DNA of 64,000 nt from Mytilus trossulus (taxonomy: Eukaryota): positions 67,518,001 through 67,582,000 of the forward strand of contig NC_086374.1 of the NCBI RefSeq assembly GCF_036588685.1, in the 5' to 3' direction. Below, piece by piece: positions 706 through 62,912 of the stretch. The notes beneath the pieces were generated by a model that saw only the letters and a list, made by a program, of their open reading frames with translations, did no database searches and was not told the origin of the DNA. Position numbers and translations under genes: made by a program. Within the stretch, counting starts at the first letter, position 1. Each line of letters starts with the position of its first letter.

Positions 706-24698
<23,993 letters not shown>

Positions 24699-47233: not shown

Positions 47234-47811
47234 ATGGAAACAGAGAGTCTACTACAGGAAAATGATACTTCAAACCATGATGTCAAGAAATTCAAAGTAC
47301 AGAATGGACAAAAAAGTGAAGAGGACAATGATCATGAAAAATTAAATGGAAAAGGGGAGACCACTGGGAATAGTTTAAGTATGAACAATGGAACAGATAA
47401 TTCATTAGGTCAACATAGGTCAGTACTGTCCCAGATATTGAACTCTAAGGAAGGAACTGTTATTCAGGTTGAACAAAATAACAAAACAATGCTCTCACAA
47501 AATTTGATAGCGCCAAATGTCAGTCAAATGAACCAATCTATTCAAATGTCAACGATGCCTCCTATGTTAGCCTCTCAAATGATCAATTTAAGCCAAATAA
47601 CTAATGGATCTTACCAATCACCAGTTATGATGTCAAATGGATCACCAATGATTCCCGTACATCCAATATTGCAACAAATTCAAACACTAAATGGATTGTA
47701 TCCAACTAATGGTTTAATTGTACAGCAGACACCAAAACCACCAACAGTTGATCTAACTGAACAGGAAGAGATTGGAAAAATGAAGGATGATGGGCTTGAA
47801 GAAAGTGTCAG
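47234..47811 (+). CDS. SBNO1: SBNO-like coding exon 1 (low-complexity N-terminus)
   Basis: Acceptor ctttcag ends 47219, ATG 47234, donor gtaagg. Confidence 0.85.
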
Positions 47812-50800
47812 GTAAGGTTAAAGGTCACTAGACAATATGGTTAGATGCATTATTATACTGTTATTTTCATACATTGTGTAACAAGGGTCCGGAAACGGTC
47901 ATATTTGCCAGTCATGTCCTAAACTGAAACTATAATGTCCTAAACTTTTAATTGGGATTTAGGTCAAATTTTATTTTTCAACCGTTATAAATTCGGTCAT
48001 TTCTTTGAGATCAACTTTCAAAATCGCAATTTTGAACATATTTTTGTTTAGTTATCAACTTCCTGTAATTAAACTGCCACTTCAATAAAGTGTTATACAT
48101 GTAATCCTGAGGGCCCTCGTAATAACTATATTAATGCCTCAGGGAGCTATTGGCTAATGATGGCTTTACCTGTGTTTTTAATTCACACCTGGCGATAAAT
48201 CACAAGCTCCAAACTATTATTATAAAGAAATAAAAATTCCATACCAACTGGCTTCATTATTTAATTACTCAACAGGTCAGACAATTGTCAATTATGATTT
48301 AAAATTAAATTAAAACTTGGTTTAATCTATGCAGAAATTTATTTTTTTTACTTCTAACACACGTGCTTTGTTTACTACGTAATACGCATGCTTGAAATTC
48401 TCTTCCACAGATTTAGACAATTAATTGTAAATTAAGAATAATTTCATCCTAAATAAAGCTAGTGCAACTATTTTAATTAATATTCTTACACTATTAAAGG
48501 TAAAATATTAAAAAGCCGATGCTTTCCTGTTATTTGGATAAACAAAACTAATCCCGGAAATGAGTCTGGAATTGTTCGTTTTAGTATTGTCGCAGTACAT
48601 CCCGTTTGAATTTTGACTTCAGAATCAAAGGAAACGTAAGCGATAACTGAAAAAATTATCGTTTTGAGCCATTAAAATCATTTTATTTTTAAACTGTTGC
48701 CTTTCCTAAATTGCTCTTGATTGATTTTTGGAAAAGGGTAGGACAAATCATGAAGTAAATGCGATGCAACAGTGAAACAAGTTTGTTGATGCTACGAACA
48801 TGACAATCGAGTGCATACTCATAATGAGTCTCATGCAGTAATGTGATTTTAACAATCATTTTTTGAAAAGGGGCATCAACTTTTAAGTTGTATGAAAATG
48901 ACCGAAATTAGGTGAACAAATTTCCGGATCCTTGATTGTGTATGTATGTTCCGATTAGATATGACCAATGAACTAGGATTCTATTTAAGAAAGTTTATCT
49001 TTTTATGATTGAAAAGTCCATTGTTCAAATTACTATCTATGCAAAATATAGAGTGACAATATATTAGAATGTAATACAGGGAAGCCAAATGTAATTTAAA
49101 AATTGGCTTTGATTTTCATACACCATATATTTTCCTTTGATGATTAAACACACTTCTGACCTTCAACCTGTCCAGATTATTGATTATTGCAATGCATTTA
49201 TTCAGAGTGCAACATAATTCAGTAAGGTGCTTATCATTTCTATTTTCAGTACTGAAGTATTTTCAAAGTATCTCCACAGAGAGATTGTACCAGGATGTAT
49301 GCCCCACCCAGGGGATATTGTAGAGGCTGGACCTCTTGCAGTAAGTATTGGAATAATATGTACATGTTCTTTGAATCTAACACATTGAAATTTAATTTGA
49401 GTTTGTGATGTGTAAACTGTATAATCATAGATTACCTGTGTTATTTGTTTGTTGTTTCTTACTTATTCATCCGATGTACTAAACTGCATATCTTGTCTTT
49501 GTTAGTCTGATTAATGGTCAAAATGTATTTTCTTTTGATGGATTTTTTTCTTTCAGAAATTAAACACCTTAACATTGAGATTTTTCCTCCCAAATAAACT
49601 CATCATAGATACCAGGACTAAATTTTGTATATACTCCATACGCGTCTACAAAAGACTCATCAGTGACGCTCGATTCCAAAAAAAATGTTGAAAAGGCCAA
49701 ATAAAGTATGAAGTTGAAGAGCAGTCTATTTGTCTTTAGTTTGATAGTATTAGTACCTGTATGACAATATTTTGTTGTATTTTGCAGGAATTACTACCTC
49801 CAGACCCTACCTACCCAGTTGTTGAAGGTATAACATCTGACATAGTAGCTACTGGAAAACTCAGTAGTTTACAATTAGAAGGGGTGCTATATGCAGTAAG
49901 TATGTAAAGTAATATATTGTTTATTTACAGTCCCAGAAAAAACATTGAACTTTTGTTCACTTCTTCACAGTACCTATGTACTGACTTGTATGCTGTGAAT
50001 TCATTGTAATTTGTTGGATACCAATTGTTGTGGATTTAGTTGGTACAGGATTTAAATTTATTTAAATTTGGTATTTCATGTTTATAAGCCTGGGATTTTG
50101 GGATCAGGCCCCCTCTTACCCTCTTCATACAAGGCAATGTTTAATTTTAGCCAGATACAAGCAAAAAATTTTCAATGACACACTAAATAAAATACATTTT
50201 ATAATTATTCCAACTGAATATATAAACTGCAGTATTAAAAGAAGAAACCTATATGTATCAATTCTCATCTTTTAATTATTGAATAACATTTTTATTTTAG
50301 TGTCAAAGACATCAGATGATTTTAACTAACGGTCAGCGAGCAGGATTCTTCATTGGTGATGCCGCTGGTGTGGGAAAAGGAAGACAGGTAATTTTCTTAA
50401 GAAATTTGGGATATGTTTATGAAATTTAAAGCAATCATATCAATAATGTATTTTCAATCCAGTTTGCTAATAAGGACAGAAAAAACAGAAATTAAAGATA
50501 TTATAGCACACAAATCCAATAGGGCTCTTCACGGTTACTTTGGTCATATTGGATAGGGGCTGATTTTCATAATGGAGGTACAAATGGTGTGAAAAATACA
50601 GGAACACATCATTAAAACAGAGCTGTTGCTTGGAAACACACATAGGATTTCCCATACTTTCATACTATTTCCACCTCTTTCTAAAAAATCTACCCCTATC
50701 CAATATGGCCAAACTAACCGTGAAGAGCCATATTCTCAACAGACAGATTGCTTCTCTGCAGAAACCAAAGATGAATGTCTCAACAGAAAATTCAACGGAT

Positions 50801-53800
50801 AAATTATCCAATGATATCAATTTTCTTAATTACACCATGTAGGATCTTTTGAGTGCTTGAACTGGCTGCTTGAACTACTGTTACAATGCCATAAATTATT
50901 CATTTTGTAGATAGCAGGTATTATTCTTGACAACTTCTCAAGAAAAAGAACAAAACACATATGGTTTACTATTTCTTCTGATCTAATTGTGGATGCACGA
51001 AGGTTTGTAGTCTTAACTCATTTTCATACTTTTGACTTTTAAGATTTAAATGTTGTGACAAGTTTTTTTGTAGACACAACAACACAACAAGTGTCTTCTG
51101 AATAACGTTATTATCTTTGATGATTTTTTTAAAACAACAAGGCCAATGCCACTTCTAATGAACATTTCCTCCCTGAGGGTATCACCAGTCCAGTAGTCAG
51201 AACTTCTATGTGGCCTTATATATCATTGATATGGTCATATTTATTAAACTTTGAATTGTTAGAGATTCTAAGGACTTTCTACTCCAGGAAAATATTACCT
51301 TAGCTATTATGGCAAAACTTGGGGAAATTTGGGTGTTCAATGCTCTCCAACTTCATATTTTATTTTGCCATAAGTTTTTTTTATAAAAGGAAACTGATGG
51401 GTCTTTTATAGACCAAACATGCACTGATAAACAAAAGTATATTATGTTTTATAAAGCCACAAATTTTGTGGATCTCATGACTATAAAGAATTTTATTGAA
51501 AAAAGATTTTACTTGAACATTTTTCAACATCATATATTGTAATTTGATTTTGCAAAGTTATTCCTTTATACAGCAGAAATTCAAATGTGACCAATTTGTG
51601 ACAATCTAGATGTTAATGCATAGATGCCAACCATTACGATTTTTCCGTAGTTTTTCCGATTTTGCATTAAAAACTATGCTATTACGGTCAAAGTCGAATA
51701 GTTACGGATTCCCAATCATTGCCGTTTAATTTTGTAAAACGCGGATTATTATCATTACTTTTCCGTCTTGGTCCGGTATTTAGAAAACGTCAATGTAATG
51801 CTTCCTGTTTCTCGGGAGCTATCAACCTACTTTTGGGTAACTTACTGACTTCGGAAGAAGCAAATTTGCATTTTATGAAGTAGCTTTCCCCCTTTCTCTA
51901 CTTCTCCTTTAGAAAACGAAAATGTACGAGTCAAAAACATCTGAACAATTAATGAATGGAATACATACTACAGACAACATGTTAAACGACAAATTTTAGT
52001 GCACATTATTTTCAACCACTCGTCAATAATTTTTATTGGGAAATGCACGTTTATGAATGATTACTGAAAACTTTTCAAAAATACAGAAAATTTGATAGTT
52101 TGTTACTGATTGTGTCAAAAAGGGTTGGCATCTATGTTAATGCCTTTATTATCTGAATACAGAGTTTTAACTAATTTTTTCAGAGATCTGACAGATTTAG
52201 GATGTCACATAAGAGTTATAGATGGGTGTCAAGAACTTGACAAGGAAACAAGGTAAGTCTCAGTGGTTTTCTTTTGTTGATGTGGTTTATAAGTGTTTTT
52301 CATATAACAGTTTTTCATATAAATTAGACTGTTGGTTTTCCTTTTTAAATGGTTTTACACATCATTTTTGGGACCTTTTTAGCTTGCTGGTCGGTGTGAG
52401 TCTAGTCTCCATGTTGAAGGCCATATTTTGACCTATAATTGTTAACTTTTTTATATGTTGTGACATGGATGGAGAGTTGTCCCATTGGCACTCAAAACCA
52501 CATTTTCTTATTTATATTAGATATTGCTGAGGTGAAGATAGATTGAAAAGTAAAGGCAAGAAACATTGTAGTGTGTGTTTGACTCGCATATCTGCCAACT
52601 TTTCAAAATGCCCATGGGGGTTTTACGTGCAAGATGACCGTCGTAGTCCTAAAAAACCTTCAAGGGGGCCTGCAAATAAATTTGAATGTTATTTTTTTGC
52701 TTCTCCATACTTTTATAAGTCTAAGTCATTGTAAAATTAATTGTTTTGTTTAAAATTGTGGACAAAACTGCTCTTTCAAAATTTCAATTTGGGAGCCTCC
52801 ATGGGGGAAATCCCCAACAAATAGTGACAGTTGGCAGGTATGGACTCACGTGATTTGACTCCTTCAATATGCAACACAAAAAATAAATCTAAGTCTATTG
52901 TTGGAAACCATTTTTCACCTGGTTTGGCAACAATTAATTTAATTAATTATTTTTAAGGGTTGGTAGGTGTTATCAATATGAAATAAGCATAGTGTAAAAA
53001 GTAAAATATTATAATGTTACAGGAATTGTTGTTAAATTATAATTTAAATTAGTTTTGTAGTGTTTGCCTTTAATTTGCTTAGTGATTAGAAATTAAGGAA
53101 TACTTGTACATGTTTTTACTGTATTCCTTATTTTATTACAGGGTTCTAGGTTTACCTGCTGATTTTAAAGAGGGAGTTGTGTTTAGTACTTATGCAACTT
53201 TAGTTTCTTCAGTACAGCGTGGAGGTATACATATTTACATGGAGTACATTTGTTTTTTTCTAACATCAACAGCTTTGTTTAAATGAAGATGAATGAAGCT
53301 TCATATGCCCCTGTGACTGTGAAAGAAGTTGCAATACACATAACCAAGGTGGGGACCTTGGTGGATAAGTGGTTTAAGTAGTTACTACTAGCCAGTCAAT
53401 CCTGAGGTTATGACTTTTGAACCCTGCTTGTTTGGGTGCACTTGACTAGGATTGTCAGTTTTCCTGTCTAAGGTCTCGGACTTCTTGCATTCCTACTGCC
53501 TTTAGCAATAAAATTGGTTACCATGACATAGCCCAAGTGCAGTGCTTAAAGTGGCGTTAAAAATTCATAATTTATTAGAATCATAACTCATAATCAAGGA
53601 TCAAGTTATATTTTGTAGTTCTGCAATAATACATATTTTAAATTTTAACATTTATTTTTCTTATTTTAAGAGTATTCAGTACATCTAGGCATAGTAGAAT
53701 ACATCAGATCTTTTGACATATTTAACATTAATGTATGTTATTTTAGGAGTATTCAGTACATCTAAACACAGTAGAATACATCAGATCTTTTGACATATTT

Positions 53801-56800
53801 AACTTCAATGTATCTTATTTTAGGAGTATTCAGTACATCTAAGCATAGTAGAATACAACAGCTTGTAAACTGGTGTGGTGGTGATAAATTCGACGGATGT
53901 CTTATATTTGATGAATGTCATAAGGCAAAGAACTTTGTTCCTGTGAGTAAGATATTATAAGTACTAATCTTTATAAACTAACTTTTTAACTCATTTTGCC
54001 TATTAAATGTTTTTATTTTGTAACTGTATACCAACTAATTTTTGCAGGCAATTTATTTCAGTGAATTTGGCGAGTAGAAAATAATGGGAATATAAATCCT
54101 CATGAATATATAAAATTTAGATCTTTTATTATCCAACTATATCCAGTAAATTTGTAAATTGTGAAATTAAATCGCTGCACATTGGGCTTGCAAGGGCTAA
54201 GCAAAATAAAGTATTTCTGAAAAAGAATATGGTTACAATATTTAAAAGATACCAGGCTTATAATTTTGTATGTCAGGCTCACTTCTTAAGCTCATCACTG
54301 ATGCTCAAATAAAAAAAAGTTAAAAAGGCCATATAAGTTTCAAATTTATGAGAATCAAGGACCTTAAATTCTGAAAGGTTTTGTCAAATTCAGCTAAGGT
54401 AATCTATTCCTGCGAAGAAAATCCTTAATTTTTCATACAAATGTCCATATTAATGATAATTCATGTCAACACAACTGCTGATTATTGGGCTGGTGATAAC
54501 CTCTTTGAGAGGAAACCTCCACCAGCCTCCACCAGCCTCCACCAGCAGTAGTATTGACTAGAATAGTTTTAAATATCTGCAACAAATTCATATCTGGATA
54601 TAGGAAGATGTGGTGTGAGTGCCAATGAGACAACTCTCCATCCAAATAACAATTTAAAAAGTAAACCATTATAGGTTAAAGTACGGCCTTCAACACGGAG
54701 CCTTGGCTCACACCGAACAACAAGCTATAAAGGGCCCCAAAATTACTAGTGTAAATCATTCAAACGGGAAAACCAACGGTCTAATCTATATAAACAAAAC
54801 AAGAAATGAGAAACACGTATATATAACATAAACAAACGACAACTACTGTACATCAGATTTCTGACTTAGGACAGGTGCAAACATTTGCAGCGGGATTAAA
54901 CGTTTTAATGGATCCAACCTTCTCCCTTTTTCTGAAACAATAGCATAACATCACAACATAGAAAAACACACGATAAAATATCAATTGGCAGACTTAACTC
55001 AATCAAAAAACGTATGATGATTATTATACTGGAATGTATTCTAGTATTTGAAAAAGATTTTCATGATGAAGTATAAATCCTCTACTAACCATATCAAGTT
55101 AGCAGACCTACCATGTATGATTGAGTTTAATCAAATTATTTTTTTATTTTTATGACAGGGTAAAGAACAGAACAGTACTAAAGTAGCTTTATCTGTAGCC
55201 ACTATACAGAGGTATGTGTTTACTCTAGATTGATGTATTTTATCATATGTTTACTTCATACTATGGTTTAATTTAATAGTTATATTTATGCAATTTATGC
55301 CATGTTAGTACACACCACTAAATTCAGCCAAAATTACTATATCTTCTCGGTGATGCATTAAAGAACTGACAATAGCATGTGGTTTTGCATTTTTAACTAA
55401 AAGTATTTCAACAGTGTAAATTTAATCTTTTTGCATGAAAGTCACTTGTCAACTTTGTCTGCATTTTATAAAGATTTCCTTTCTTTTTATAGGTTACTTC
55501 CTAAAGCCAGAGTATTATACTGTAGTGCTACTGGTGTCACAGATGTTAAAAATATGGTACTGTACTTAGTATATTAATAAAAGAATTGCACTAATGTTAG
55601 CCTGATAGCTTTTGTTCCTGCCATTTTTCTGAAATAACAAAAGTGCATAGAATTTCTAGTATGCAATATCTATAGATAACTGGCTGAAGGACTTAGAGAG
55701 AACTAAAAGAAGTCCTACACTTAACACAACAACTTGAATATGGAAACGAAACAAGAATTTCTTTTTTTTTCTTGTCACAAATTGTGATCTTGATCATAGA
55801 AATTTGTGAATGTCATTAAATAATTATAAGTTGATGTCCATTATGAATAAATAGAATTTAAAAAAATGTGTGATGAAGGATACAAAAATACAACCGCTAT
55901 AAAAAAAAAGATGGCTTTGTCATACTTCTCCAATGGTACCTTAAGCTATATTGAAATTGTCCAGCCTTTATTTCACGGGCTTAAAAAGATTAAGTAAAAC
56001 AATATTTTTTTTTATTAAATTCAGCTGTTTAACCAACAGAAAAATCATGTATATCAGTGGAGTAGAATTTTACTGAATGTTAATTTTTCTAAAGTTCCTG
56101 TAATGCCTGTTGTTAAAAAAATGTGTTTTAGGCATTTATGGAGAGACTTGGATTGTGGGGAGAGGGAGCACCATTTAAGACATTTGAAGGGTTCCTGGAC
56201 ACGGTACACAAGAAAGGTCTTGGTATGGCAGAGATGCTGGCGATGGAGATGAAGATGTCGGGAATGTATATCTCCAGAGGGCTGAGTTACAAGCAGGCAG
56301 AGGTAAATTTTCAGTCCAATGAAGAAAACAAAATTAATTTGAAAACTATGTAGATGTTGTGCATGGTTCACTGAATATAATTTTATAGTGTAATTAGGGC
56401 ATTGTGTCTATTCATGTTTTTGGTGAATCTACCTTAAAATGTACAATCACATTCTCCTTCATTATCACTGAACTAGTATATATTTGTTATGGGGCCAGCT
56501 GAAGGACGCCTCCGGGTGCAGGAATTTCTCACTACATTGAAGACCTGTTGGTGACCTTCTGCTGTTGTTTTTTTCTATGGTTGGGTTGTTGTCTCTTTGA
56601 CACATTCCCCATTTCCATTCTCAATGTTATTCTTACTTTATTTTTATTTAAGACATATTAAAACATTGGTTCTTTAGAACAGCTTTCAGGGGCTATACAC
56701 CAAAGATTGTGCCATTATATTTTTGACATATGACATGTTAAACCATTGGTTCTTTTGAACTGCTTGGTATTATTTGATATTAAGTAGAAAACTCTATAAT

Positions 56801-59800
56801 TAAACAAATAGTTGAAATGCTCATTATTAATGCTTGAAAGCTTTTAAGTGAAGCTCTGACTGTAGAAATAATCATACTTTTAATTCTTCATTATCTGTAT
56901 GCTTTTCCCAAAGGATTTTTTTTTTTTTTTTTATCATTTTGTGTAGTTTGTGACAATAGAAGCACCACTGACCACAGAACAGAAGAAGATGTTTGATGTG
57001 GCTGCCAAAGTATGGTAAGATAAACAATGAATCCATCATAAGATGTATGATGTAGTTGCCAAGGTATGGTAAGATAAACAATGAATCCATCATAAGATGT
57101 ATGATGTAGCTGCCAAAGTATGGCAAGATAAACAATGAATCCATCATAAGACGTATGATGTAGCTGCCAAAGTGTTGTAAGATAAACAATGACTCCATGT
57201 CAGATGCTTACAAACACATCATTAAGGAAAAGAAATCAATTTCTTGTGACTCAGACTAGGAGAGTAGATAACAAACACTGGCAGATCTTCATAAGTGGGG
57301 GCCCACTGATTGCCTAAGAGGGGGCCCGCTCCAGTCATGCTTCAGTGATTCCCTATATAAGCAGCCAAATTTTTTCCCTAAATCCTCCTCTGACAAATGT
57401 TTTAAATGCAGGGAAAATTTCTCTCTTTGTATTGCAAAATTTACTATTAAAAATGTGCTTTCACCAGTTCACCAGACTTAAATGTTAAATTTTGCACATT
57501 CACCGTCTAAAAATCAGAGACGTAATTTTTGGTCACAGGTTCTCATTTGATATGATGATAAAACTCAATGTAAATGTTATACCTCAGGGGTTAAGAAATT
57601 TTGTTATAGCTCACTAGCCCAGGGCTAATTGGTAGCAGGATTTTACTAGCCCTGTTGGAAGAACTATTAGCCCAACAAAACTGACCTGCTAGCCCAAGTA
57701 TGCCTCACAAATTCAGAGTTTGCTGCAAAATATAATGAATTCTATAAACTTAACCATTTTTATCCGTTGTACAGTAGATTTTAGCAAATTGGATACCCAA
57801 AACTTATGTCAGCAAAAAAAATATCCCATTAGCAGACACATTCAATTAGTCAATAATTGAATATTCATTGACTATTCTGTAATAATAAGTTGACCAAATC
57901 CCGATATGGTACAACTCTTGTCCACTGCTATAGTATATGGGTATTTAAAGGATTAGAGACTCCGAGTGATTTTTATCAGATACATCATCATGTTTGTGTA
58001 AAAGACCTCAAATATTTATGCAGTGGCGGATCTAGAATTTTTCATAAGTGGGGCCCACTGGCTGCCTAAGAGGGGGCCTGCTCCCGTCACTCTTCAGTGA
58101 TTCCCTATATAATCAACCAAATATTTTTCTCCACCCCCCTAAATCAGCCTCTGTTATGTGAATAAATATCACCAACCATAGTTGCGTCTTTTATAATTGT
58201 TTCATAAACGAAGTACAGTAATATCCATATTTACATTTATCACAGGTAAGCTAAATTTTTTGTTACTAGTCTGTTGGGCATATTGGGTTACAAGATTTGG
58301 TTGCCTGAGGCCAAAATGCTGTCGTCCCGGGCGTTGGGCTTGTTGATTTTTTAACCCCTGTACCTCTGCACCTCCTTTCAAAAGGAAGGAAGTGATAGTG
58401 GTTTACCTGTGTTCACCTGTCCTCTACACACATCTGTCATATACCGTATAGCGGGTCATTTTCGTGGGTGTAAAATTTCACGATTAAAAATTATATCAAT
58501 ACCTTTGCATGTGCTGTTTTAAATTGGTGGAATTTATTTTAGCGATTTTGTTCTATCCGCAAAAAAAAGGGGAAAATTTACATCCCACATAAATAAACCG
58601 CTATACACGGTATTTGTCAGCAACCACAGTTGCTGAGTGGTCTAAGTAGATCAGCTACTGTAATCACCAGCCAGTCAACCCTGCTTGTAATGGTGCCCTT
58701 AAATTGTGAACAAGCACTTTAAAAATCTATCTAACAGTGCAATCTTGTCTCACTACCAAATGTCAGTGTCTTCCTCCACGAAAAACTTACCCTAACAAAA
58801 TAGAACAATAGTGTATTGTTTGGTGTTCAACACTAATCAGTCAGTAACCACAAGTCATAGCTCCTTGATATATATATGGTAACAAACATACACAAACATC
58901 ATATATTGTGAGGTTTTTCCAGTTTTACAATGTTTTTATATCACTGTTTGCTTAAATCTTATATTGTGAAAATGCCATGGACAGATATGAAATTTTGTCA
59001 CTTTTTTTCTTAGCATCTACAAATAATGGAATGTTGATATATGGCACTAAGCTTTACCTGGATATGCCATATCATGTGGAACAATAACAGTTCCTTTGAT
59101 GTTCTTCATTTTGTTTTTTAAAAATCTAGAGCATAAAAATTACTACATTTTTTTTTTTATAGGAATGAATTAAGGAAGGCTCTAGAGAGTCCAAGTAAAA
59201 GATGTTATAGTAGTAACAATATAGATACTACAATGTTTTATCTTTACAGGAATGAATTAAGGAAGGCTCTAGAGAGTCCAAGTAGAAGATATTATAGTAG
59301 TAACAATATAGATACTACAATGTTTTATCTTTACAGGAATGAATTAAGGAAGGCTCTAGAGAGTCCAAGTAGAAGATGTTATAGTAGTAACAATATAGAT
59401 ACTACAATGTTTTATCTTTACAGGAATGAATTAAGGAAGGCTCTAGAGAGTTCAAGTAGAAGATGTTATAGTTGTAACAATATAGATACTTTTATCTTTA
59501 CAGGACAGAATTAAAGAAGGCTTTAGAAAGTGCCAGTAGAAGGTGCAACAGTAGCAACAATCGACTTTGGGGCCAGTATTGGTCAGCCCATCAAAGGTTT
59601 TTTAAACAACTTTGGTAAGTGTACTTTATTGTATGTAAACACAAGTTCATATATTTAGTTGAAGAACACTGTGATTTTTTTAAGTAACTTTGATTGGAAC
59701 ATTAAACTGCCTTCTAAAGAAGTCTTGTGGTAGCATGTTTGCCTGAAGTGCAGGAGTTCATGTGTTTTAACCGTGGCTGGATTAAATGAAAAACTTTAAA

Positions 59801-62714
59801 ATGATATTTGCTGCTTCGCTGATAAGTAAGAGCACACATTGGTCAGCCTAGAGTAAAGCTAATGTGTCTTTGTAATGTAACTTGTCTTTCTTCAGACTGT
59901 TATCTTGTGAACTAACACGATCAATTCTGGCTCAAGAGTGTAGGTCTAGTACAAAGAAGGGTAAATATTAACCACGGGGGGGTCTCTTCCTATTTAAAGG
60001 TATATACATATATGCCGCTGGAATGGGTCCCTTTTTTGATCCATCAAATATATCAATGGGGTGCAATTTTACCGAGGAAATATATCAATAGGTAGTAATT
60101 GACCAATTGTGATATATCAATGGGTCATAAATATATGAATGGGTTATGATTTCGCTGTGAAATATATGTATAGGTAGGGATTTCACAATTATTCAATATA
60201 TGAATGGGGGGTGTTTTTAAAATCCCAGCTGCACACCTGTACCCAAAATCCCATGTTGAGACCCCCCCCCCGTGATATTAACACTGCATTAATATGTTCT
60301 TGTCTTGAATATGCAAAATAATTTGTCACCAGAGGTTAAGCAGCCATTCGTCATCAGCCTCAATTGATTTCATCCTTTAGAATTTTTGAAGTTATAAATG
60401 CCACAATGCCCCATAGCTGATTTCATCCATTAGAATTTATGAAGTTATAAATGCCACAATGCCCCATAGCTGATTTCATCCATTAGAATTTATGTAGTTA
60501 TGAATGCCACAATGCCCCATAGCTGATTTCATCCATTAGAATTTATGAAGTTATAAATGCCACAATGCCCCATAGCTGATTTCATCCATTAGAATTTATG
60601 TAGTTATGAATGCCACAATGCCACATAGCTGATTTCATCCATTTAAATTAAGGAAGTTATAAATGTCACAATGCCCCATAGCTGATTTCATCTATTAGAA
60701 TTTATCAAGTTATAAATGCCACAATACCCCATAGCTGATTTCAAGCTCTTTTTTTTGTGACCAATGGGAAACAATCTTTTGAAAATGTTGATTTTGTTGA
60801 CATCTGCGATTTTGGTATCTTTCAAGAGCTTTAATCTTTGAAACAAGGTTAAATTCTGTACCATTATTTACATTTTGTATTATAGGGTATATTAATTAGA
60901 AACCATATGATTTTCAGAGCATGAAATGTTGAGTCTTGTGTTATTACTGCATCTGTCTTGTCTGTCCTGTTTCAGGCTTGAAACTTAGTTCATTATGAAA
61001 TGTTCTAAATACCTGCTAATAGGGGATTTTAACAAGATTTTGTAGTTCAATGAACATAGAAAAGTGATGGTGCAAGCTGAGCTTAGTGTTTCTTTAAATA
61101 GATATTCTCGCTTAAAAAATTAAGCATGAAATTTCAGAGTTGTAAGTCCAACAGTTTTATAATTTAATGTTTCAGCATGGGAATGAAGGTACCAACCATT
61201 GTAAAAGAGACCAAGGAATCATTAGAGGCAGGTTGCTGTGTTGTTATAGGCCTACAGACCACTGGAGAGGTATACATGCACTGACTAATACATCTTCCAC
61301 TTTTTATACGCCCATCAAAATTTTAACTGGACGTATTATGGTACAATGTGGTATACAAATGTCTGGCATCCGTCTGTCTGGTGTCCACATGTCGCATCGT
61401 AAGTTGAGAACCGCTTATCCAAATTTCATGAAACTTAATATAGTTGTTTTTTATTATGGTCAAACGATCCGTAAACTTTTTGGTGAACATAGGCTTTAAA
61501 CTTTTTGAGGTACAGGACTTTATAACTAAAACAGCGATGTGTATTTTTTACATGTCGCCCTGTATTTCAAAAACGATTTCTGATTATTGCTATAATTTTT
61601 ACACAATTTTTTAATTATATTAATCCAAAGATCTGTATACTTTTTGTTGATTTAAAATTTTATTTTAGAGTTATTGAGTATTTTTGAGGGGGGAGGGGGG
61701 GGGGGGGGGGGGGTATGGTGTCACATGTTGCATTGTATCTTAAAAACCATTAATGACTATTGCTTAAAACTTTACACACTTCTTAGTTATATTAATCTTT
61801 AGATCTGTATGTATTTTGGTGATGATTCAAAATTTTAATTTTAGAGTTATTGTTTTTTTTTTTTGTTCACACGTCGCGCTGTATCTCAGAAACTATTTAT
61901 GATTATTGCATAAAACTTCTCACACAAGACGAAGGGCGTATCATGGGCTCATGGCGCAGCTCTTTATTAGCACACTTGGTTGGGTAGGTTTACATGTTTT
62001 CCTGCAGAATTCATTGTTAGAATTGTGTACAAACACATTTAAAATCCAACTCACCATGACGGTCTTCTTCAAAGAAGGGTAAATATTCATTTTACCTGAA
62101 CATGTCCTTGCGCTGAATACTGACGTTTCATTTATTTTTGTGGGTTGAGAAAAACTTGCATGTTCGTGGATATTTGATTTTGTAATTTTGTCAAAGTCTG
62201 CATACAAGTCTATCGAAAATGTGTCATTTGTTGAATATTTAGTTTCGTGGTCCACCTATACCCACCAAATCCACAAAAATTGGTGTCCATGGAATATTAA
62301 TGAATCCACAGTATGCATTTAATATGCAGCGTGAGGTAAAGCGACCATCCATCATCATCCTCATCATCATGAAACAACTGATCCAAACTGATACCAAACT
62401 TTTATCTTTTTGTTGAATTAGATCTTGAAGGTAGTATGTTGTAATATTTTCATTTTCAAGACATTGAAACGAAAGCTTAAATCAATGTTAGAATTTTCAT
62501 TGGTTGAAGTGTATGATTTGTATGATAGTCAAGTGCTTTGACTTTACAAATAAGTCTTGGTTATTCAGATGCTGTAAAACCCTGTTTTATATTTTAGGCT
62601 AGTTTAGACAGTGAGCTGACAAAGAAAGGCAATCTGACTGGATTTATGTCATTATGTAGAGAAATCCTCACAAGATTTATAAATCAGTACTTTCCTGTCA
62701 TGATTGAAACTAAG
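47234..62714 (+). CDS. SBNO1: Strawberry notch-like DExH helicase-like protein, 5' part, 15 coding exons, incomplete. Join 47234-47811,49250-49340,49788-49895,50301-50387,50911-51002,52184-52252,53142-53224,53824-53942,55159-55211,55493-55556,56132-56302,56947-57014,59504-59614,61176-61269,62598-62714
   Basis: GT-AG introns with consistent phases. Motifs [41 protein letters not shown] (Walker A), [75 protein letters not shown]. The symbol denotes the family. Confidence 0.93.
47882..48934. mobile_element. About 1-kb non-autonomous DNA transposon (P/hAT-like termini)
   Basis: TIR caagggtccggaaa / tttccggatccttg; attgtgta on both flanks, offset by one base on the left. Confidence 0.7.
49250..49340 (+). 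CDS. SBNO1: SBNO-like exon 2 (HPGDIVE)
   Basis: ttttcag / gtaagt. Confidence 0.88.
49607..49722 (-). mobile_element. Hammerhead-repeat relic, GAAA strand deleted
   Basis: Minus strand GCGTCA-CTGATGA-GTCT(TTTGT)AGAC-GCGTA-TGGAGT; flanks match 14432-14553. Confidence 0.6.
49788..49895 (+). CDS. SBNO1: SBNO-like exon 3 ([12 protein letters not shown])
   Basis: ttgcag / gtaagt. Confidence 0.9.
50301..50387 (+). CDS. SBNO1: SBNO-like exon 4 (Walker [12 protein letters not shown])
   Basis: ttttag / gtaatt. Confidence 0.93.
50520..50732. mobile_element. MITE with about 45-bp TIRs
   Basis: ggctcttcacggttactttggtcatattggatagggg / cccctatccaatatggccaaactaaccgtgaagagcc. Confidence 0.8.
50911..51002 (+). 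CDS. SBNO1: SBNO-like exon 5 (IAGIILDN...DLIVDARR)
   Basis: ttgtag / gtttgt. Confidence 0.9.
51165..51435 (+). mobile_element. Hammerhead-repeat relic, plus orientation
   Basis: CTGATGG-GTCT(TTTAT)AGAC-CAAAC at 51394; body matches the reverse complement of 54330-54510. Confidence 0.5.
51619..52136. mobile_element. MITE, TIR catagatgccaacc, 6-bp TSD TTAATG
   Basis: Perfect 14-bp TIR and direct repeat. Confidence 0.8.
52184..52252 (+). CDS. SBNO1: SBNO-like exon 6 (DLTDLG)
   Basis: ttttcag / gtaagt. Confidence 0.88.
52587..52842. mobile_element. MITE, TIR catatctgccaact, 6-bp TSD GACTCG/GACTCA
   Basis: TIR related to 51619-52136. Confidence 0.7.
53142..53224 (+). CDS. SBNO1: SBNO-like exon 7 ([10 protein letters not shown])
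   Basis: ttacag / gtatac. Confidence 0.9.
53350..53565 (+). mobile_element. Decayed tRNA-derived SINE
   Basis: A-box-like tggataagtgg, B-box-like ttgaaccc, tail atagcccaa..gtgcttaaagtggcgttaa; related sequence at 27580-27643 and 58620-58850. Confidence 0.55.
53630..53862 (+). repeat. 3 x 77-bp tandem repeat spanning the acceptor of SBNO-like exon 8
   Basis: ttatttta(a/g)gagtattcagtacatcta at 53661, 53738, 53815. Confidence 0.92.
53824..53942 (+). CDS. SBNO1: SBNO-like exon 8 (DECH box)
   Basis: ttttag / gtgagt. Confidence 0.92.
54249..54590 (-). mobile_element. Near full-length (about 340 bp) decayed hammerhead-repeat unit
   Basis: Begins ataccagg.ttataattt.gta like the 14432 and 49607 copies; core heavily mutated. 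Confidence 0.5.
54597..55017 (+). mobile_element. Family A1 copy (longest)
   Basis: High identity to the 7142 and 35402 copies. Confidence 0.85.
55159..55211 (+). CDS. SBNO1: SBNO-like exon 9 (STKVALSV)
   Basis: gacag / gtatgt. Confidence 0.87.
55493..55556 (+). CDS. SBNO1: SBNO-like exon 10 (SAT motif III)
   Basis: tttatag / gtactg. Confidence 0.9.
56132..56302 (+). CDS. SBNO1: SBNO-like exon 11 (RLGLWGEG...[10 protein letters not shown])
   Basis: ttttag / gtaaat; ORF 56138-56353. Confidence 0.93.
56947..57014 (+). CDS. SBNO1: SBNO-like exon 12
   Basis: gtgtag / gtaaga. Confidence 0.85.
56986..57198 (+). repeat. 4 x 54-bp tandem repeat spanning the donor of SBNO-like exon 12
   Basis: Donor-equivalent positions 57015, 57069, 57123 (GC), 57177. 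Confidence 0.92.
57585..58360. mobile_element. MITE, TIR caggggttaa, 5-bp TSD TACCT, with a nested short MITE at 58021-58153
   Basis: TIRs and TSDs visible. Confidence 0.75.
58444..58610. mobile_element. Small Tc1/pogo-like MITE, TA flanks
   Basis: taccgtatagcgg ... ccgctatacacggta. Confidence 0.65.
59150..59561 (+). repeat. 87-bp tandem repeat (4 copies plus the functional exon start) spanning the acceptor of SBNO-like exon 13
   Basis: Exon-start equivalents at 59163, 59250, 59337, 59424; true exon at 59504 (last spacing 80). Confidence 0.95.
59504..59614 (+). CDS. SBNO1: SBNO-like exon 13 ([15 protein letters not shown])
   Basis: ttacag / gtaagt. Confidence 0.9.
59973..60274. mobile_element. 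MITE, TIR cacgggggggtctc, 8-bp TSD ATATTAAC, internal atatatcaatggg repeats
   Basis: Perfect TSD and TIRs; sits within a decayed SINE-like stretch. Confidence 0.85.
60365..60744 (+). repeat. Minisatellite, 53-bp unit, about 7 copies
   Basis: gctgatttcatccattagaatttatgaagttataaatgccacaatgccccata. Confidence 0.95.
61176..61269 (+). CDS. SBNO1: SBNO-like exon 14 ([11 protein letters not shown])
   Basis: tttcag / gtatac. Confidence 0.92.
61302..61968 (+). mobile_element. HINE-like element with internal ~170-bp repeats
   Basis: Subterminal IR atacgccc/gggcgtat, gtct microsatellite, repeated cacatgtcg..tgtat.tca..aac.att.atgattattgc units. Confidence 0.7.
62598..62714 (+). CDS. SBNO1: SBNO-like exon 15
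   Basis: ttttag / gtaaaa, 117 nt open. Confidence 0.85.
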
Positions 62715-62912
62715 GTAAAACACTTTTTATTTGTATTTTGAAATAATGTCTGAATAAATGAAGCTTTCTCTTAGGCTCTTAGCAAAGGTTTATGTAAGAT
62801 TGATCCTTAAAAGTTGAACCTTGACTTGTAGTATCAATGGGGTGTATATGTGTTCATCTAAGCCCACTTTGTACTGAAAATAAGTTAAATCATTTCATTA
62901 GTTATACTTTAA

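Follow-up and report, generated by a model that had tools for sequence, protein, structure and literature searches.

A mirage minisatellite at a splice acceptor and a hyper-diverged exon in the strawberry notch gene of Mytilus trossulus

Minisatellites whose units span an intron-exon boundary, termed mirage minisatellites, have been described in amphioxus in Adh3, the globins BflGb6 and BflGb9, troponin C and PGBD5 (PMC3087553, PMC3902484, both from the available parts of their texts). The array reported here, from the mussel Mytilus trossulus, shares with them tandem copies of an intron-exon boundary complete with AG signals and a similar unit size, together with homogeneous inner copies, an end unit outside the homogenisation, and a presence that varies by haplotype. 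Units of the amphioxus arrays are 81–100% identical, and the available parts of those reports describe neither a derived working exon nor exon divergence beyond the repeat (PMC3087553, PMC3902484). A further system is the 37-bp VNTR in intron 7 of human F7, where the end unit is the real splice site and the pseudo-sites are silent, as in a 54-bp donor array of the same mussel gene. The F7 repeat, however, sits at a donor and not an acceptor, its pseudo-sites are identical to the real one and its mechanism was worked out by experiment, whereas the mussel array is known from sequence (PMC1557585, likewise from the available part).

We analysed a stretch of 64,000 nucleotides of the M. trossulus genome, hereafter the window. 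The first 15 coding exons of a Mytilus strawberry notch gene lie inside it, and the gene extends ~39 kb beyond its end. When exon 11 was used as query in a protein search, the matches were SBNO/FORGETTER1-like and carried PF13872 and PF13871; the nearest of them belongs to a cluster that holds P0060 (M. trossulus), P0061 (M. californianus), P0062 (M. galloprovincialis) and P0063 (M. edulis). By precomputed domains, both PF13872 and PF13871 are present in the cluster representative P0002, as expected of the SBNO family, with orthology judged by sequence. The window exons reproduce the cluster member P0060 exactly; P0060 probably comes from the same assembly as the window and is then not independent support for the exon model. 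P0001 is presumably the M. coruscus protein. Mapping of P0060 to the window placed 59504-59614 as the 13th coding exon, 111 nt in length. Upstream of the gene, ~640-24700 of the window has open frames that resemble exons of another gene, glutamine-rich in places (e.g. 20549-21466); an R3H-domain-like identity for it is our guess.

47234..62717 (+): strawberry notch (SBNO/FORGETTER1-like) gene, coding exons 1-15 (protein matches, P0060 mapping)
56948..57014 (+): coding exon 12; its last 10 codons are residues 519-528, the start of an amino-acid hotspot (P0060 mapping)
59504..59614 (+): coding exon 13, residues 529-565 of P0060, the hyper-diverged segment (P0060 mapping, related-mussel contigs)

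The array at the exon 13 acceptor

A sequence-only reading of this DNA had noticed four copies of the exon 13 start ahead of the real exon, and TRF and alignment bore out the array, its coordinates and its 80-bp last unit. TRF placed a repeat of period 87 and 4.9 copies at 59141-59561; each of the four copies joins the end of the intron to the opening 58 nt of coding exon 13.

59141..59503 (+): acceptor-spanning mirage minisatellite at the 3' end of the exon 12/13 intron, three 87-bp units and one 80-bp unit (TRF, alignment)
59163..59220 (+): copy 1 of the exon 13 start (58 nt); adjoins unique upstream intron, with its AG after a T-run (alignment)
59250..59307 (+): copy 2 of the exon 13 start (alignment)
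59337..59394 (+): copy 3 of the exon 13 start; nearest to the copy consensus, with 12 differences from the exon (alignment)
59424..59481 (+): copy 4 of the exon 13 start, within the 80-bp unit (alignment)
59487..59503 (+): true acceptor, in terminal position and shorter by 7 nt than those inside the array, with the same short form in array-less samples X13 and X18 (contig tables)
59512..59514 (+): TAA reached in frame from every upstream acceptor, 100 nt before the exon donor (frame scan)

The array is not an assembly artefact, because contigs of sample X3 are identical to 59335-59451 and 59422-59641 and an 87-nt back-joint is found in X2 and X6, the contigs of these last two not spanning exon 13. 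A search of the species' own genome (G000) found the array at this locus only and at no second site. It is present in X2, X3 and X6 and missing from both contigs that reach upstream of the acceptor in samples of the other exon class (X13 and X18), in which the upstream flank joins the short 17-nt acceptor directly; the contig of X12 starts at the acceptor and is silent on the array. The near-identity of X13 and X18 to the window at 59487-59503 was judged from the number of unlisted differences. The short last unit had earlier been put down to a 7-nt deletion that disabled the decoys, an account that was not supported: since the array-less X13 and X18 already have the short acceptor, the extra 7 nt are more likely an insertion in the 87-bp copies than a deletion in the last unit. 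Units that span the boundary, an AG kept in 4/4 of them, concerted inner units with the boundary unit excluded, and variation between haplotypes were all found here, as in mirages.

The upstream AGs lie just before 59163, 59250, 59337 and 59424, all four units ending in TAG or CAG. Exons begun at these decoys would measure 452, 365, 278 and 191 nt, where the true exon has 111 nt; none of them would keep the frame, and the reading frame stays open through the copies until the TAA at 59512-59514, in agreement with the previous account. The copies differ from one another at 1-3/58 positions and from the exon at 12-13/58; that they are near-identical and stop-free also agrees with that account, and a stop-free 87-mer is unsurprising, since 10 intron-derived codons would lack a stop with probability 0.56. 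Twelve of the 58 sites separate the exon from all four copies (seven at codon position 3, three at position 1 and two at position 2), the recount matching the 12 differences and seven third positions counted before. Three of the seven sit in residue-changing codons, however, and purely synonymous codons number only five beside four residue-changing ones. By itself the third-position excess is weak: tested against a share of one third it gives P = 0.066, and against one half, as expected of a synonymously drifting exon and a decaying copy, P = 0.39.

As controls we took another four splice-site arrays, of which three belong to the same gene and one to a paralog.

56986..57198 (+): 54-bp donor-spanning array, 5' end of the exon 12/13 intron (TRF, alignment)
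53644..53861 (+): 77-bp acceptor-spanning array at coding exon 8; copies nearly equal to the exon, the first without the AG (TRF, alignment)
L005 6086-6296, beyond the window by 6 kb: 54-bp array of 3.9 copies at an acceptor, the fourth among the splice-site arrays of the strawberry notch gene
L074 1814-2209, contig C8 of G000: 89-bp acceptor-spanning array in a distant strawberry notch paralog

Pooled, these arrays gave 8/151 shared differences from their exons, a count that includes some overshoot past the homology ends, compared with 12/58 at exon 13 (Fisher P = 0.0015). The paralog's array, nearly the same in build, had 0/58, and in the L005 array both shared exon differences within homology are synonymous. 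Codon 519, with which the hotspot opens, is precisely where the donor array starts; Tyr521, the ancestral residue, survives in the array copies, and exon 12 has a derived Phe there. In a 944-kb survey for mirages, 98 arrays were found and one of eight inspected candidates was tied to an exon, with a filter that missed two known arrays of the strawberry notch gene. Two intronic minisatellites of the window, at 60365-60743 (53-bp, 7.2 copies) and 11376-11912 (60-bp, 9 copies), showed no tie to an exon boundary. Elsewhere in the genome, L083-L089 (G000:C2, ~67.13-67.20 Mb) hold two long 174-bp satellite blocks of 176 and 126 copies in opposite orientation.

Divergence of exon 13 and of the protein segment around it

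Exon 13 was compared with the intron that follows it in contigs of related mussels; contigs from eight sequencing runs were used in all.

59615..59712 (+): opening part of the following intron, with ~95% likeness to X13 and X18, used as the neutral-divergence control (contig comparison)

X18 differs from the window at 22/98 exon positions open to comparison and at 3/68 positions of the next intron (P = 0.0008), and X13 at 24/98 and 4/68 (P = 0.001), with one 2-nt insertion in each beside those counts and an intron control that is short, at 68 nt. In X18, 18 of the 22 exon differences are synonymous; they fall in 16 of 27 degenerate same-residue codons (hand count) and on 17.0 synonymous sites. 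Exon 13 is saturated at its synonymous sites against relatives of the X13/X18 type while its flanks are nearly alike. Net synonymous divergence of M. edulis from M. galloprovincialis has been put at 1.89%, and the split of M. trossulus at 3.5 MY ago (PMC7045717, from the available part). The diverged block runs from the first codon of the exon to 8 nt before its donor, 59607-59641 being free of listed differences in X13 and X18, and 10 of the X18 differences fall in 59562-59606, outside the array cover. What the sequence-only reading had overlooked is that the working exon is itself the outlier, with divergence that reaches the exon 3' end past the array cover. Between X13 and X18, both without the array, divergence is likewise higher in the exon (11/98) than in the intron (2/68; P = 0.044). 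DNA of other exons could be compared over 30 nt of exon 14 only, with one difference, in X7/X22, which there possibly have the window's haplotype. Farther into this intron, at ~59970-60290 of the window, lies a high-copy dispersed repeat (depth in thousands in DNA runs).

In the likely-RNA contigs of X7 and X22, from one study of organism C, an exon 12 end of edulis-like type is joined by splicing to a window-like exon 13, which differs from the window at 6 positions in 107 nt, five of them unplaceable, and has Tyr at residue 529. Organism C therefore has both exon 13 classes, the window-like one in X7/X22 and the other in X13, so that the class crosses species labels and recombines with its neighbours; introgression fits equally. 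Sample X3 (organism B) carries the window haplotype across the last copies, the exon and the intron, and in addition a second, X18-like intron haplotype (59612-59712); both together are as expected of a hybrid or heterozygote. Of the eight letters that only the edulis-type allele has, seven fall in codons with a changed residue (by hand count, with one site taken from P0063). The changes of the window allele are mostly silent, and its new residues T529, K532 and F521 are found in other orthologs.

At the protein level, residues 519-556, 38 of the 984 in the core, hold 12 of the 28 columns that vary among the four edulis-complex proteins, and 0/20,000 random placements were equally clustered; P0003, in which residues 428-448 look mis-predicted, was excluded from this count. 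P0061 and P0001 differ at 0/38 hotspot residues. Searches of shorter and full-length proteins gave no further Mytilus alleles, and P0064-P0070 are without the segment. The exon 13 proteins are 83-94% alike over 35 residues. In the model of the Lottia ortholog, which resembles Snf2-type ATPases, the segment forms a long helix, a short loop and a second helix (mean pLDDT 73, ~89-96 here); a sequence search for a solved SBNO structure found none. The changes at 529, 532, 536 and 539 are spaced as along a helix, leave the conserved W528, L535 and A538 untouched and interleave with conserved hydrophobic positions, a pattern which suggests that the changed positions may lie on an exposed face.

Which side changed, and the origin of the divergent exon

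The copies encode N529 and R532, as do the M. californianus and M. galloprovincialis proteins, where the exon has T and K; among 41 non-Mytilus orthologs these two are also the commonest residues, N529 in 30 and R532 in 27. X12 and X18, with galloprovincialis-type residues, carry the copy's letter at 59523, 59528, 59543, 59546 and 59555, and X13, with edulis-type residues, carries it at four of the five and a third letter at the remaining one. At 59506, 59507 and 59515 the exon appears derived from the orthologous N529 and R532, as judged from the proteins and from the count of unlisted differences: the contig tables seem to list only differences at least 31 letters from a piece end, so that 59504-59516 is not shown, and the five differences that go unlisted in each of X13 and X18 agree with the N and R/W codons expected from the named proteins. 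Polarised against close relatives only, the exon is derived at 8/12 sites and the copies at 4/12, with synonymous sites polarised against sister taxa alone; scans of metagenome contigs for outgroup DNA gave no match. Were the exon to drift at silent sites only and the copy to decay at an equal rate, the expected exon-derived share would be ~1/5 or less, and 8/12 departs from it (P = 0.0006 against 0.2; P = 0.018 against 0.33).

Two residues are changed by the four copy-derived letters; at one of them, Ala538, the change is A-to-P. Ala538 is invariant (41/41 non-Mytilus orthologs and 5/5 Mytilus proteins), so A538P is likely decay of the copy. The comparison supports the view that the copies retain letters of an older coding allele. 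A once-coding allele had been proposed as their source, and that proposal survives in so far as older coding letters, the orthologous N529 and R532, seem to have been kept, whereas the present copy, with A538P, was probably not itself once-coding. A paralog, the other source proposed, found no counterpart, since none close was found in the species' own genome. Relatives do not match the exon at nearly all 12 sites, the outcome that would have spoken against the sequence-only reading. Overall, the original observation was confirmed and its interpretation supported in part, with the direction reversed.

Several ready sources of such a pattern were rejected. The exon-derived changes are directionless (four A/T-to-G/C, three G/C-to-A/T and one T-to-A, by hand count), which speaks against GC-biased conversion. 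A foreign codon style was rejected as well, because the exon's GC3 of 0.35 is ordinary for a gene whose exons range from 0.14 to 0.51 and composition thus gives no sign of foreign origin. In diversity-generating retroelements the variable repeat differs from its template at template adenines; that pattern was rejected, only 3/12 differing sites being A in the copies. A paralog or retrocopy as donor was also rejected: searches of the own genome gave only this locus and the distant C8 paralog, and the window allele equals the C8 paralog at 5/7 X18-differing motif sites (hand count), which is not significant and forms no tract.

We give a probability of roughly one half to the reading that the copies froze a native exon-13 allele and that the working exon is an old divergent version acquired or retained through exon-limited recombination under selection. 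On this account, the array would have arisen by local duplication of the acceptor and exon start and been tolerated, its copies no longer coding and keeping the lineage's native allele apart from four later changes. The working exon would have evolved long under ordinary purifying selection, with saturated silent sites and three conservative residue changes, as an anciently separated sequence (an old allele, or a lost or dispensable paralog) able to recombine only where homology remained. Selection on the helical hairpin 515-582 would then have kept this exon, and the decoy acceptors would be mostly ignored, any use of them leading to a premature stop. Exchange with an old sequence within the exon bounds is suggested by the saturated silent sites, the conservative residue changes and the coincidence of the block ends with the exon ends; selection on the hairpin surface is suggested by the edulis-type allele, which changed the same surface by point mutations.

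Several observations weaken this reading. Among the best-scoring candidates, protein and DNA searches of the own genome for a donor of exon 13 gave only this locus and the distant C8 paralog, which encodes a different protein sequence, and the protein search gave no other Mytilus cluster; the source may have been a dispensable or lost donor. That no donor was found counts against it, as does the excess of exon divergence between the array-less X13 and X18. One swap does not account for the end of exon 12 differing too, and very old balanced alleles are less readily expected given that P0061 equals P0001 throughout the hotspot.

The four alternatives that we weighed fit worse. The hotspot is continuous in the mRNA and is split in the gene by a 2.5-kb intron with arrays at both internal splice sites, the donor array starting exactly at its first codon, and of the four shared differences within homology that the donor array and the 54-bp acceptor array farther downstream have together, three are synonymous and one is exon-derived. 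These features would suit recoding in place, in which selection favoured an exon 12-13 stretch of the mRNA that departs from a complementary sequence, such as small RNAs arising in the arrays or in a captured fragment, or that outcompetes the decoys, with rapid fixation of synonymous changes. Divergence outside the array cover (10 in 53 nt) is, however, about equal to that inside, X13 and X18 diverge without an array, X13 mostly by residue-changing letters, shared differences number 0-1 in the 77-bp array and in the C8 paralog's 89-bp one, and searches of the own genome gave no captured or processed copy. We consider recoding rather unlikely, and doubtful too its fuller form, a ~130-nt mRNA stretch in a nucleotide-level arms race that would have been recoded to saturation in a few MY beside static introns, with the flanking arrays as snapshots, and perhaps the source, of the escaped sequence.

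The remaining three fit worse than recoding as well. An ordinary history of one duplication, neutral decay, amplification and normal exon drift, the excess being noise or the effect of an unusually conserved or introgressed intron flank, accords with the position of 7/12 differences at third sites (P = 0.39 against one half), with the decay-like look of the four copy-derived letters, A538P at an invariant site among them, with the abundance of mirages in the genome (four in the strawberry notch gene, one in its paralog) and with the shortness of the intron control. That reading is already weakened by the 8/12 exon-derived sites, by the 16/27 codons synonymously different from X18 (16/29 at a 20% background, P = 3e-5) and by an amino-acid hotspot that is independent of the intron control, and we think it quite improbable. 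Slightly less credible still is local hypermutation, by error-prone repair at a fragile site, that after filtering by purifying selection made both the substitutions and the tandem duplications. Many codons do differ at positions 1 and 3 together, and the same intron is flanked by two arrays; yet repair mutagenesis is not expected to stop at exon ends, no difference is listed for X13 or X18 at 59607-59641, the exon changed more than the copies did, and the exon-derived changes have no direction. That the array is a functional decoy device, diverting part of the transcripts to an early stop and so to decay, and that selection shaped the 80-bp unit so that no decoy is productive, would explain why four upstream AGs all lead to the TAA 100 nt before the next junction. 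Against it, the short acceptor is the form of array-less relatives, chance alone would put two of every three unit lengths out of frame, the X13 and X18 contigs are without the array, and the likely-RNA contigs X6, X7 and X22 show no spliced loose end at a decoy acceptor, in assemblies from which rare forms are dropped. X7 and X22 splice exon 12 to the terminal exon and may be array-less, and X6 does not cover the exon. We regard such a device as very improbable.

Significance and comparison with known systems

In the literature searched, mostly without subscription journals, no paper on this locus was found; 'strawberry notch' and 'Mytilus' occurred together only in an oyster expression study that, from its available part, may concern the other paralog (PMC3348941). 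A conserved helicase-like gene is not expected to have the silent sites of one exon randomised across ~3.5 MY beside an intron ~95% alike. Whether by import of an old exon or by recoding, the result would be a sharply bounded target of selection in a hybridising species complex, which makes the exon 13 segment a candidate for a host-antagonist interface or a hybrid incompatibility. Mirage arrays can hold a snapshot of an earlier allele, and comparison of exons with their copies, extended over the many mirages of mussels, could find such exons without outgroups. If other exons prove equally diverged, only an ordinary mirage is left.

Introns of MHC genes are less diverged than synonymous exon sites. 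The trans-species MHC alleles likewise form deep classes of a single exon that cross species labels and recombine with neighbouring exons, whereas the mussel exon combines few residue differences with saturated synonymous sites (PMC3434948, from the available part). In Anopheles, conversion fed by paralogs at APL1 and TEP1 has similarly raised synonymous and non-synonymous diversity at one locus through exchange; there the donor paralogs are known and the products are immune effectors, whereas in the mussel no donor was found and the protein is intracellular and helicase-like (PMC9222773, in the part available). The accelerated exons of snake venom genes (ASSET) also have surface exon segments far more diverged than their introns, with the mechanism left unexplained in the available part of the report, but they involve replacement by unrelated sequence in multigene families with mainly non-synonymous change, while the mussel protein stays ~80-90% alike and its window allele differs mostly at synonymous sites (PMC2711939). 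Set against the ASSET pattern, the mussel exon has a flanking intron far more alike than the exon itself and no replacement by unrelated sequence. The array is thus of a known kind, a mirage minisatellite, and the hyper-diverged exon that it exposed is the part worth following.
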